The notes beneath the pieces were generated by a model. That model had not been told where the DNA came from, did not search any database, and saw only the letters and a program-made list of their open reading frames with translations. Positions 15,565 to 61,036 of a stretch of DNA of 64,000 bases are shown here, piece after piece. This DNA is from Eubacteriales bacterium OttesenSCG-928-K08 (lineage in GTDB: Bacteria; Bacillota; Clostridia; Christensenellales; CAG-138). Within the stretch, counting starts at the first letter, position 1; the number at the start of each line of letters is the position of its first letter. Both the position numbers and the translations under genes were made by a program. The stretch covers positions 6,396-70,395 of the forward strand of contig JAJDHH010000002.1 in assembly GCA_030266105.1 (NCBI GenBank). Direction: 5' to 3'.

Positions 15565-15835
15565 AAAAACTATTCCTGGGGATTATCAAGGGGTCGCAAC
15601 CCCCTTGATTTTTAATATGCGGGCAAGAGTCGGAGCCAAGCGCTGCCTGTGGCAGATGAAGCGCGGCGAAAGACCAGTGAACAAGCATGTTTTGCAAAAA
15701 CTTGCATTGCGAACTGCGAAGCGTGTACGCCCGCCAGCCCACACCTTGGGCATTTTTATGCCCGCAGCGTAGCTGCAATAAAAATGTGGTTATCTCAAAA
15801 AAGTGATGTGCGGCGTAGCCGCAGCACTTTTTTGA
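15565..15835 (+). repeat. structured intergenic repeat element, copy A (carries a ~93-nt internal insertion)
   Basis: Shares AAAAACTATTC-TGGGGATTATCAAGGGG...CCCCTTGATTTTTAATATG and ...GCGTGTACGCCCGCCAGCCCACACCTTGGGCATTTTTATG-CCGCAGCGTAGCTGCAATAAAAATGTGGTTA-CTCAAAAAAGTGATGTGCGGC-TAGCCGCAGCACTTTTTTGA almost base for base with copy B. The strand given is the orientation of the consensus; the transcribed strand is unknown. Confidence 0.85.
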
Positions 15836-15841
15836 CAGTCT

Positions 15842-15869
15842 AAGCATTCCCATGTGGGAATGCTTTTTT
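15842..15869 (+). terminator. intrinsic terminator (probable original marR terminator)
   Basis: AAGCATTCCC / GGGAATGCTT stem, ATGT loop, then TTTTT. Confidence 0.7.
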
Positions 15870-29322: not shown

Positions 29323-29329
29323 GCCTCAC

Positions 29330-34849: not shown

Positions 34850-34858
34850 TTCAGGCTG

Positions 34859-35040
34859 TAAAAACTATTCTTGGGGATTATCAAGGGGCCGCGGCCCCTT
34901 GATTTTTAATATGTGGGCAAGGGCGGCGTGTACGCCCGCCAGCCCACACCTTGGGCATTTTTATGGCCGCAGCGTAGCTGCAATAAAAATGTGGTTAACT
35001 CAAAAAAGTGATGTGCGGCATAGCCGCAGCACTTTTTTGA
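34859..35040 (+). repeat. structured intergenic repeat element, copy B (compact reference copy)
   Basis: GGGGATTATCAAGGGGCCGCGGCCCCTTGATTTTTAATATGTGGGCAAGGGCGGCGTGTACGCCCGCCAGCCCACACCTTGGGCATTTTTATGGCCGCAGCGTAGCTGCAATAAAAATGTGGTTAACTCAAAAAAGTGATGTGCGGCATAGCCGCAGCACTTTTTTGA. Homologous to copies A, C and D. Confidence 0.9.
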
Positions 35041-57370: not shown

Positions 57371-57377
57371 GGAACTT

Positions 57378-57557: not shown

Positions 57558-57591
57558 ATGGCCGCCGCAACTGCGGCGGCCATGCTTTTTT
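57558..57591 (+). terminator. intrinsic terminator between iolN-like and iolO-like genes
   Basis: ATGGCCGCCGCA / TGCGGCGGCCAT stem followed by GCTTTTTT. Confidence 0.7.
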
Positions 57592-59535: not shown

Positions 59536-60810
59536 ATGAGCATTTTTTTGAAGGATATGAGCGGCAGCGGGCTTACAAACGAGCAGATTCTTGGGGCGCT
59601 TAAAGACTCCATTAAGGGCAAAACCCTGCGCCGCGTGCTTATTATTCCGCCGGATTACACGCGCTTTCATTCAAACGCCGGCTTTATAACAAACGCGTAT
59701 TATCACATGCTTTGTGATATGGGCTGCGAGGTGGATATTTTGCCCGCGCTTGGCACGCATGAGCCGGTTTCAAAAGAGGAATGCGAGCTGATGTTTGGGG
59801 ATATCCCATACGAAAAGTTCATTGTGCACAACTGGCGCACGGATGTTATCCGCATAGGCGAAGTGCCGGGGGAATACCTTAGCGAAATTACGGACGGCCT
59901 GTGGGTTGACCCAATCAGCGTGGAGGTCAACAGGCTTGTGATGGATGAGCGTTATGATCTAATAATCTCGCCAGGCCAGGTTGTGCCGCATGAGGTTATC
60001 GGCATGGCCAACCACAGCAAAAACCTTTTTGTGGGCGTGGGCGGAAGCGAGATGATAAACAAATCGCACATGGTTGGCGCTGTGTATGGCATGGAGCGAA
60101 TGATGGGCAAGGATTTTACGCCCGTGCGCAAAATGTTTGATTATTCGCTCGAAAAATTCCTGAAGGATCGCCCCATACTTTTTGCGCTGACGGTTACAAC
60201 AGCGCCCGGCGGCAACATACACACGCACGGCCTGTTTATCGGTGAAAAGCGGGATGTGCTGGAGGCAGCCGTTGAGCTTGCGCAGCAAAAAAATATCGAT
60301 TTTGTGGAGCGCGGCATCAAAAAGTGCGTGGTGTATCTTGATCCTAAGGAGTTTAAGAGCACTTGGCTTGGCAACAAATCCATTTATCGCACGCGTATGG
60401 CCGTGGCGGATGGCGGCGAGCTAATCGTGCTCGCACCAGGCGTAACAAAGTTTGGTGAGGATGCGCAGGTGGATAAGCTCATCCGTAAATACGGTTATTG
60501 CGGCAGGCTTAATGTGCTGGAGCTGTTTAACAACCCGGAAAATGAGGATATCCGGCAGAACATGGGCGCAGCGGCGCATTTGATTCATGGCTCGTCCGAT
60601 GGACGCTTCAAAATCACTTATGCCGTTAAGCAAATCACAAAAGAGGAAATCGCCCAGGTGAAGTTCGAGCCTGCCGACTATGATGAGATGGCAGCGCGCT
60701 ATAATCCGGAAACGCTCGATTACGGCTGGAACACCTTGCCGGATGGTGAGGAGATTTACTTCATCCCCAACCCTGCACTGGGATTGTGGATTGATAAAAC
60801 CAGGTTTTAG
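59536..60810 (+). CDS. LarA-like (lactate racemase N-terminal domain / DUF2088) putative nickel-pincer-dependent racemase/epimerase
   Basis: The order IIPPDYTRFH, LPALGTHEP, DLIISPGQVVPHEVIGMANHSKNLFVGVGG, INKSH parallels LarA blocks SDHTRP, ATGFHRP, SHFFAGFSGGRKS and MANH as I recall them. ATG at 59536 lies 10 nt after GGAG. Confidence 0.7.
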   Translation: MSIFLKDMSGSGLTNEQILGALKDSIKGKTLRRVLIIPPDYTRFHSNAGFITNAYYHMLCDMGCEVDILPALGTHEPVSKEECELMFGDIPYEKFIVHNWRTDVIRIGEVPGEYLSEITDGLWVDPISVEVNRLVMDERYDLIISPGQVVPHEVIGMANHSKNLFVGVGGSEMINKSHMVGAVYGMERMMGKDFTPVRKMFDYSLEKFLKDRPILFALTVTTAPGGNIHTHGLFIGEKRDVLEAAVELAQQKNIDFVERGIKKCVVYLDPKEFKSTWLGNKSIYRTRMAVADGGELIVLAPGVTKFGEDAQVDKLIRKYGYCGRLNVLELFNNPENEDIRQNMGAAAHLIHGSSDGRFKITYAVKQITKEEIAQVKFEPADYDEMAARYNPETLDYGWNTLPDGEEIYFIPNPALGLWIDKTRF

Positions 60811-61009: not shown

Positions 61010-61036
61010 AAACCGCGGCAGAGCCGCGGTTTTTTT
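61010..61036 (+). terminator. intrinsic terminator (probable original terminator of the larA-like gene)
   Basis: AAACCGCGGC / GCCGCGGTTT stem followed by TTTT. Confidence 0.7.

Follow-up and report, generated by a model that had tools for sequence, protein, structure and literature searches.

The intergenic element that recurs four times in the 64-kb stretch of Eubacteriales DNA analysed here (the window) probably represents a new MITE family that is highly structured, has IS1182-type ends and targets terminator hairpins. It had initially been described as a structured repeat whose fold is under selection in RNA or single-stranded DNA. The selected fold stands, whereas that description had missed a mobile DNA element delimited by TIRs and, in some copies, flanked by duplicated hairpins.

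Copies in the window and their architecture

All four copies were recovered where the initial annotation had placed them (nhmmer E = 1e−52 to 1e−63), and the element proved to be wider than described there, reaching 22−25 nt upstream of GGGGATTAT and ~7 nt beyond its last hairpin, P4. Copies are about 200 bp long (range 175−290 bp), which is within the small size of MITEs. The reference copy, B, occupies positions 34850−35047 on the plus strand, with boundaries set by a flanking 24-nt direct repeat, and is matched by the covariance model R1, built from window-type copies, at 34873−35047(+) with 197 bits. It consists of the left end (TTCAGGCTGTAAAAACTATTCTT), GGGGATTAT, P1, P2, ACCTTG, P3, P4 and the right end (TTTTTTGACAAGTTA), in this order. 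Copy A (15554−15842, plus strand, delimited by alignment and R1) is matched at 15578−15842(+), its insertion splitting the match into two parts of 95 and 46 bits. Copies C (57371−57559) and D (60807−61009), both on the minus strand and delimited by sequence and R1, are matched at 57371−57534(−) with 150 bits and at 60807−60984(−) with 159 bits, respectively.

Each window copy is placed between a stop codon on one side and an intrinsic-terminator hairpin on the other, with one end directly at the hairpin foot. The left end of copy A overlaps the TAG stop of a MarR gene (15554−15556), and its right terminus ACTTTTTTGACAGTCTA (reverse complement TAGACTGTCAAAAAAGT) adjoins a terminator hairpin at 15843−15866. 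The right end of copy C adjoins the TAA stop of a creatininase-family gene (57368−57370), and its degenerate left end a terminator hairpin at 57560−57581. Similarly, the right end of copy D overlaps the TAG stop of a LarA-like gene (60808−60810), and its left end AAGGCTGTTAAGGGTCTCTATCTTA adjoins a terminator hairpin at 61010−61036. Copy B is surrounded by a perfect 24-nt repeat, AGGGCGGGTGCGAATGCACCCGCC, which is the terminator hairpin common to two convergent genes. Both hairpin copies, 100 percent identical, were found by the repeat search and by the terminator scan. The left one (34826−34849) is followed by a T-run when read on the minus strand, so that it is predicted to be able to serve as the terminator of the transketolase gene (35096−36067). 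The right one (35048−35071) sits inside a longer stem (35043−35078) and is the predicted plus-strand terminator of the sortase-domain gene (33787−34770). The genes flanking the four copies (MarR and GerA for A, sortase and transketolase for B, creatininase-family and AP-endonuclease-2 for C, LarA-like and PadR for D) are functionally unrelated to one another.

The layout agrees with that given initially: GGGGATTAT, P1, P2 around a GC hairpin, (A/T)CCTT, P3, GTGGT and P4. P3 carries a G(N)CCG bulge (G(G/C/T)CCG in the window copies) and an inner hairpin, and P4 is a long A-tract/T-tract hairpin. The P3 arms that had been quoted are also correct (CATTTTTAT/ATAAAAATG in A and B, CGTTTTCC/GGAAAACG in C and CATTTGCT/AGCAAATG in D), as is the swap of a C−G for a T−A pair in P1 of copy D. 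Both strands of copy B fold far better than shuffled sequences (z = −5.5 and −7.2), thus each hairpin is a DNA palindrome. A scan with the intrinsic-terminator consensus flags P1 at 34880−34903(+) and the core of P4 at 35014−35028 on both strands; judged by stem and T-run, P1 and P4 appear to be terminator-like.

The loop of P2 in copy A hosts a nested insertion of ~90 nt (15629−15719, plus strand), defined by alignment of the copies. Its relatives were found by blastn in other Clostridia MAGs (L097:438−493, 87.5 percent; L040:2860−2891, 90.6 percent), in one case apparently upstream of a gene, and the same motif, compared by eye, is present in the nested insert of L053 (4540−4700). The insert is a separate small structured module with the core ..GGAGCC..GCGC TGCC TGT GGCA GATGAAGCGCGGCGAAAGACCAGTGAAC... 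A hammerhead reading was rejected because the insert does not retain the core U4 and Rfam gave no match for it. A different mini-element of ~47 nt (..CCCCAGGG..CTCTCTTGCCGCYTTGCGGCAATTCACCTT..) is present twice in one host copy from the Oscillospiraceae MAG CAYPKG (L054:3100−3300 and L100:4490−4521), with one insertion in the P2 loop and the other in the P3 loop, and other small hairpin inserts occupy the same P2-loop position (..CATGTAC|..) in JAEXEN and JAEWZS. The element's own hairpin loops are hot spots for insertion.

The window also contains two solo hairpins close to P4 in sequence (TCAAAAAAGTG..CACTTTTTTGA). One, at 29324−29370 on the plus strand (nhmmer E = 2.6e−7), bears the right-end TIR motif (CACTTTTTCGACAC) and directly follows the stop codon of the POR gamma gene. 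The other, TTCAAAAAAGTGGCTATGCCACTTTTTTGAA, found in the R1 search, is intergenic (40869−40909, plus strand). These may be deletion derivatives, produced by recombination between the left TIR and the 5′ arm of P4, or minimal ends-only elements that act as terminators.

The absence of a convincing ORF noted initially was confirmed: none is conserved between the copies, and a conserved small ORF, the sole candidate, was rejected because indels between copies break its frame. Two mechanically called ORFs, 15290−15880(−) of 196 aa and 57252−57617(+) of 121 aa, overlap copies A and C; being copy-specific, they are probably spurious and could mislead automatic annotation.

Occurrence of the family, its ends and its insertion sites

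A scan of the genome collection with the P1 pattern returned at least 106 loci, ~70 of which are from Clostridia MAGs (rumen, gut, termite, digester) and keep the order of hairpins even where the sequence has diverged. R1 produced at least 80 matches (23−151 bits) in 73 Clostridia loci, among the matches listed. The family is present in at least 38 species-representative Clostridia genomes, one of them that of the cultured Christensenella intestinihominis AF73-05CM02, with two copies in a span of 8 kb. Of 15 loci from a metagenome scan for the window subtype, only L109 and L116 were new and relevant. Viral contigs contained only one full-length copy, and blastn of the element against the plasmid collection returned no match. 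As had been noted before, the element belongs to no named ncRNA family: neither the window nor 18 related loci matched Rfam 15 at gathering thresholds, E-value mode gave only terminator-like noise for copies A and B, ARAGORN made no tRNA- or tmRNA-like call, and a literature search with the exact P1 sequence retrieved no published description.

Sequences sharing the P1 motif were also observed outside the family. In Parachlamydiales/Chlamydiae MAGs (L010, L017, L019, L034, L042, L052, L093, L105) a GGGGATTATTAAGGGGG..CCCCCTTAAT hairpin, with a second one (CCAGAGGGTC..GACCCTCTGG) ahead of it, adjoins the 3′ ends of different tRNA genes; these repeats share P1 with the element and nothing else. 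Similar lineage-specific repeats are found in Alteromonadales, Methylophilaceae, Planctomycetota and an unclassified MAG (CAVPKK). In addition, a long near-perfect palindrome with the P1 motif (AAAGGGCTGTAAAACAGGCCGAATAGGGGATTATCAAGGGGAAATTTCCCCTTGATAATCCCCTATTCGGCC..; L030:~7751, L032:~6747, L060:42−79) has nearly the same sequence in Sodaliphilus, a Prevotellaceae MAG and Faecousia, which suggests a horizontally transferred element end.

The ends of the element form imperfect TIRs with the consensus (C/G)AG(G/A)CTGTCGAAAAAGT. In the main subfamily and in window copies A, B and D, the left TIR reads ..AG(G/A)CTGTCGAAAAAGT and the right end ACTTTTTCGACAG(C/T)CT... The right repeat is the 3′ arm of P4, and the stretch from the duplication to GGGG repeats the last bases of the element in inverted form. 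The TIRs are degenerate in copy C and some subfamilies, and some subfamilies have no recognisable TIRs or duplications. Strict conservation does not extend to the outermost 2−4 nt, an unusual situation for DDE transposons.

Among the matches listed, exact flanking repeats of at least 13 nt accompany 13 of 99 copies compared with 0 of 300 mismatched controls, and repeats scoring at least 14 with mismatches allowed accompany 10 of 69 copies compared with 0 of 593 controls. In eight of these ten duplications, the left repeat ends 21−25 nt before GGGG and the right one starts at most 2 nt from the end of the model; a further duplication, of 31 nt, was found in L043. The duplications are of unusual length (14−41 bp), and most correspond to a whole terminator-type target hairpin. 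A clear duplication is kept in only ~15% of copies, window copy B included. Remnants beside copies A and D that resemble a collapsed hairpin were considered as decayed duplications and dropped, ATGCTT of copy A being more likely part of its left TIR.

TIRs and target duplications also bear on a second kind of mobility, in which a REP/BIME-like or IS200/IS605-PATE-like element would be moved as folded single-stranded DNA by a Y1 HUH transposase (RAYT or TnpA) recognising the P1 hairpin and the conserved 5′ GGGGATTAT. RAYTs recognise GTAG together with the REP hairpin, and the element has an invariant 9-mer at the 5′ foot of P1; of three further copies that the covariance model found without the P1 search pattern, two have nearly kept this 9-mer. 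Conserved, strand-biased structure, mosaic and nested organisation and intergenic location resembling those of BIMEs, and the recurrence of GGGGATTATYAAGGGG hairpins as repeats in unrelated phyla would fit as well. However, HUH-mobilised elements have neither TIRs nor target duplications, both of which are present here, no conserved target tetranucleotide was seen at the junctions, and the element comprises four distinct hairpins, not one or two REP units. We therefore consider this mode of mobility improbable. For the same reason, IS200/IS605, the IS family that the initial annotation proposed to follow up, is not the appropriate one, and the ends resemble those of the IS1182 family instead.

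Insertion sites of the putative MITE are preferentially at gene ends. Among the matches listed, 49 of the 53 copies with both flanks called are at a gene 3′ end, and ~77% of copies run antisense to the preceding gene. It is the P4 end that points towards the 3′ end of a convergent gene in 48 cases versus 14, often a few bases from the stop codon. Perfect hairpins of at least 8 bp are found in 26% of left and 14% of right flanks compared with 3% of random windows. Gene-end position, together with the match of P1 and P4 to the intrinsic-terminator consensus and the solo P4-like hairpins at terminator positions, might point to an immobile module of host 3′ ends (a compound terminator, for instance, or an element for mRNA stability) whose spread would have been due to duplication or to recombination between terminators, and whose flanking repeats would be by-products of replication slippage at palindromes. 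Such a module is very improbable given the unrelated neighbouring genes, both orientations, different flanks, precise boundaries that are the same across genomes, and ends like those of known IS. Furthermore, no copy was found in the 17.6 kb examined of the nearest available relative, whose orthologous transketolase gene is followed by a single terminator. The transketolase subunit encoded in the window is 100% identical to the NCBI protein of Eubacteriales bacterium OttesenSCG-928-K08, and the next relatives are 76−77% identical.

Some insertions appear to be shared between species. Subfamily ii copies occupy an apparently orthologous site in L024, L027, L035, L040, L062 (minus-strand copy), L083 and L094. 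In L094, which was examined in detail, the site is the ybaB−recR spacer of a dnaX−ybaB−recR cluster; the copy there lies in antisense orientation to the operon, with its left end overlapping the ribosome-binding site of recR. The downstream coding sequence of L094 is shared by the other loci. This suggests either ancient insertion with long retention or repeated use of one terminator.

IS1272 and TnSha1, members of the IS1182 family, insert at the base of terminator hairpins in both orientations and without primary-sequence specificity, and their insertion deletes part of the target hairpin (PMC4923244; PMC5678879). Attack at the 5′ feet, which would duplicate the whole stem-loop, has been put forward as a model only (Fig. 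13, pathway b, in PMC5678879). An excess of convergent-gene context has also been described (PMC9208149). We compared the element with four IS1182-family elements from plasmids (IS1272 and those of E. faecium, L. plantarum and Kurthia), the ends of which read GAGTCTGGGACATAAA, GAGGCTGGGACA(A/T)AA, GAGGCTGTGACATAAGT and GGGACTGTGACATAAGT. Their TIR consensus, GAG(G/T)CTG(G/T)GACATAAGT, agrees with (C/G)AGGCTGTCGAAAAAGT of the element at ~12 of 17 positions, as counted on the two consensus sequences, and each of the four has a terminator-like hairpin just inside each end. Individual termini of the element are also similar to IS1182 ends (CAGGCTGTCAAAAAAGC, GAGACTGTCGCAAAAGT, GAGGCTGTCGAAAAGC and TAGACTGTCAAAAAAGT at the right end of copy A). 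With a PWM built from seven IS1182 TIRs, 12% of left and 4% of right ends score above the 99th percentile of random windows, and 22% and 14%, respectively, above the 95th. The top-scoring matches lie at the termini set by the duplications, and the right end of copy A is the best match among all right ends. Thus, the TIRs are similar in sequence to those of IS1182-family elements of Firmicutes, although the similarity is partial and absent in several subfamilies.

The four IS1182-family transposases had no tblastn match in the window or any of the fetched loci, so that the transposase partner is one that we infer; a motif scan of the same sequences revealed no longer element with the same ends. 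A covariance-model search of the four IS1182 elements for the P1−P3 core gave hairpin-level noise and no counterpart. As a separate observation, the flanks of the L. plantarum IS1182-family copy (L134:523−540, 2375−2390; L122) are inverted repeats of each other (GGAATCATAAGAAA / TTTCTTATTATTTC), as though a hairpin had been split by the IS. In this copy and in IS1272 the transposase ORF extends through the right TIR, a feature already reported for IS1272.

Judging from its ends and insertion sites, the element would be a gene-less non-autonomous DNA transposon of ~200 bp with imperfect TIRs, the left one located 22−25 nt upstream of GGGGATTAT. It probably borrows its transposase in trans from an IS1182-type IS. 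This enzyme would direct insertion to the foot of DNA able to form hairpins (cruciforms), which in practice means intrinsic terminators downstream of genes. Attack on both strands at the 5′ feet of the palindrome, followed by repair, would duplicate the whole hairpin of 14−41 bp, and other events or later decay would leave a single hairpin beside the element. Because terminator-like P1 and P4 lie just inside the ends, as in IS1182 elements, insertion between a stop codon and its terminator would be tolerated.

Covariation and strand bias

In an alignment of 80 sequences, which was fitted to the covariance model and therefore leans towards structure, standard pairs make up 92.8% of cells compared with 69.9% after shuffling, and cells with both sides changed number 612 compared with 192 expected. 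The covariation score is 0.337 versus 0.103; none of 500 shuffles reaches 0.337, and controls with slid partners stay at or below 0.076. Two checks that depend less on the model agree with this result. In the raw P1 pattern matches listed, the free P1 pair is C−G in 57 cases, T−A in 47, T−G in 7 and C−A in 1. RNAalifold, applied to a MAFFT alignment of 14 members of another subfamily, found compensatory changes in 21 of 57 pairs. The proposal that a selected fold rather than plain duplication explains the repeats is thus not only upheld but strengthened. The RNAalifold analysis of that subfamily further suggests that the 5′ GGGG may pair with the conserved CCUU of the junction.

The other proposal, that P3 has three unrelated sequences with the same pairing, holds for the arms themselves. 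Copies B and C are 94% identical over P1−P2 and different throughout P3−P4. Accordingly, the P3 variety within one genome more likely reflects co-resident sublineages or mosaics than compensatory mutation in place.

Wobble pairs are biased towards the element's own strand: G·T and T·G total 101 compared with 42 for A·C and C·A. The bias amounts to 34 versus 6 in P4 and 12 versus 3 in P1, where the alignment is unambiguous, whereas the CM-fitted alignment and RNA scoring may inflate G·U counts in P2 and P3. This bias implies selection on a single-stranded form of the top strand, either RNA or ssDNA. In addition, unpaired nucleotides are conserved in the P2 loop (CRTGYRCG), the CCTTG junction and the internal loop of P3 (G(N)CCG...CA), and subfamily ii has GNRA-type loops.

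Alternatively, the element could primarily be a gene for a structured small RNA of ~175 nt, its copies having spread secondarily. Such an RNA would start at or near GGGG, contain a multi-helix core (GGGG−CCUU, P1, P2 and P3) and end at the terminator P4, and might act, for example, in protein sequestration, as an antisense to the 3′ end of the neighbouring gene or as a recombinase guide. Very strong covariation in every helix, the conserved unpaired nucleotides and GNRA-type loops, the own-strand wobble bias, clearest in P4 and P1, the canonical stem and U-tract of P4 and the orthologous positions of copies across species are all consistent with this possibility. On the other hand, no conserved promoter was found upstream of the element, the flank being different at every site, and there is no gene association or Rfam relative. 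Since the ~77% of copies are antisense to the gene they follow, read-through cannot make the top-strand RNA, and together with the lack of a conserved promoter before GGGG this does not favour a free-standing sRNA gene. The possible inflation of G·U counts weakens the case in P2/P3, and TIRs, defined termini and target duplications call for DNA-level mobility regardless. We regard a primary sRNA gene as unlikely. Two related candidates were rejected. A sigma-70 promoter using GATTAT or TATTNN upstream of GGGG has no −35 element at the right spacing, and a start there would destroy P1. An IS110-style bridge RNA was dismissed because no recombinase is present and the likeness of P2 to the target of copy B is not repeated in A, C and D.

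Returning to the structured MITE, its strand-specific features do present a difficulty, because covariation in P2/P3, conserved loop and bulge nucleotides and wobble bias are not required by double-stranded cut-and-paste. They point to an extra single-strand constraint, on RNA or ssDNA. Strand-biased wobble could have been inherited from a parental IS where, on the top strand in both cases, incoming transcription would be stopped at P1 and the transposase transcript would be terminated at P4. Candidate explanations for the conservation of P2−P3 are transposase binding on folded DNA and an RNA function. As the MITE model does not itself account for P2−P3 conservation and wobble bias, an added RNA-level role is possible. 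An outside chance is that the P0−P3 core, made from one strand, is a functional RNA or ssDNA in the element's own mobility, recruiting or guiding the transposase to extruded terminator hairpins. If so, the element would be a structure-guided, RNA-assisted DDE transposon, and the whole-hairpin duplications would be the footprint of cruciform transposition.

Implications and comparison with known systems

We know of no earlier MITE family tied to IS1182-type ends, and if our interpretation is correct, this would be, to our knowledge, the first. It would also provide about a dozen natural cases in which an entire terminator hairpin has been duplicated at the insertion site, an outcome predicted, but not documented, for hairpin-targeting IS1272-like elements. 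Such whole-hairpin duplications argue for the base of an extruded cruciform as the site of strand transfer. Uncultured Clostridia of the gut and rumen commonly carry the element, and its presence in cultured Christensenella makes experiments possible. A covariance model would prevent its loci from being mistaken for novel sRNAs or riboswitches and would flag a repeat that inserts between genes and terminators and may break MAG assemblies. P2−P3 conservation and strand-biased wobble make the element a reasonable candidate for a transposon-encoded structured RNA.

Small, gene-less, multi-copy, hairpin-rich intergenic repeats are well known, including Correia/NEMIS, ERIC, RUP, BOX, bcr1 of Bacillus cereus and BIMEs of E. 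coli, and the element resembles them in all these respects. Structured MITEs and mosaic repeats are often co-transcribed with their neighbours, modular and sometimes nested; they produce short fixed duplications (often TA or 2−9 bp) or none and are not known to target terminators by structure. Compared from general knowledge, the element shares no sequence with these families and, unlike them, keeps, in many genera, a four-hairpin architecture in which compensatory change is extensive.

Class C group II introns home just downstream of the stem-loops of intrinsic terminators and are strongly structured, strand-specific RNAs, so that terminator-linked sites and strong structure are common to both. 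However, these introns are at least 400−600 nt long, have a conserved six-domain fold, possess no TIRs, duplicate no target and take a single orientation with respect to the terminator, none of which applies here; the intron models of Rfam had no match to the element in the window and 18 loci.

A close parallel is with IS1272 and TnSha1, with which the element shares hairpin targeting, insertion in either orientation, location at gene 3′ ends and a terminator-like hairpin inside each end. IS1182 elements are 1.5−2 kb long, whereas this element is ~200 bp and has no transposase gene. Finally, while IS1272 deletes part of the hairpin and makes no duplication, ~15% of the copies of this element are flanked by a whole duplicated hairpin.
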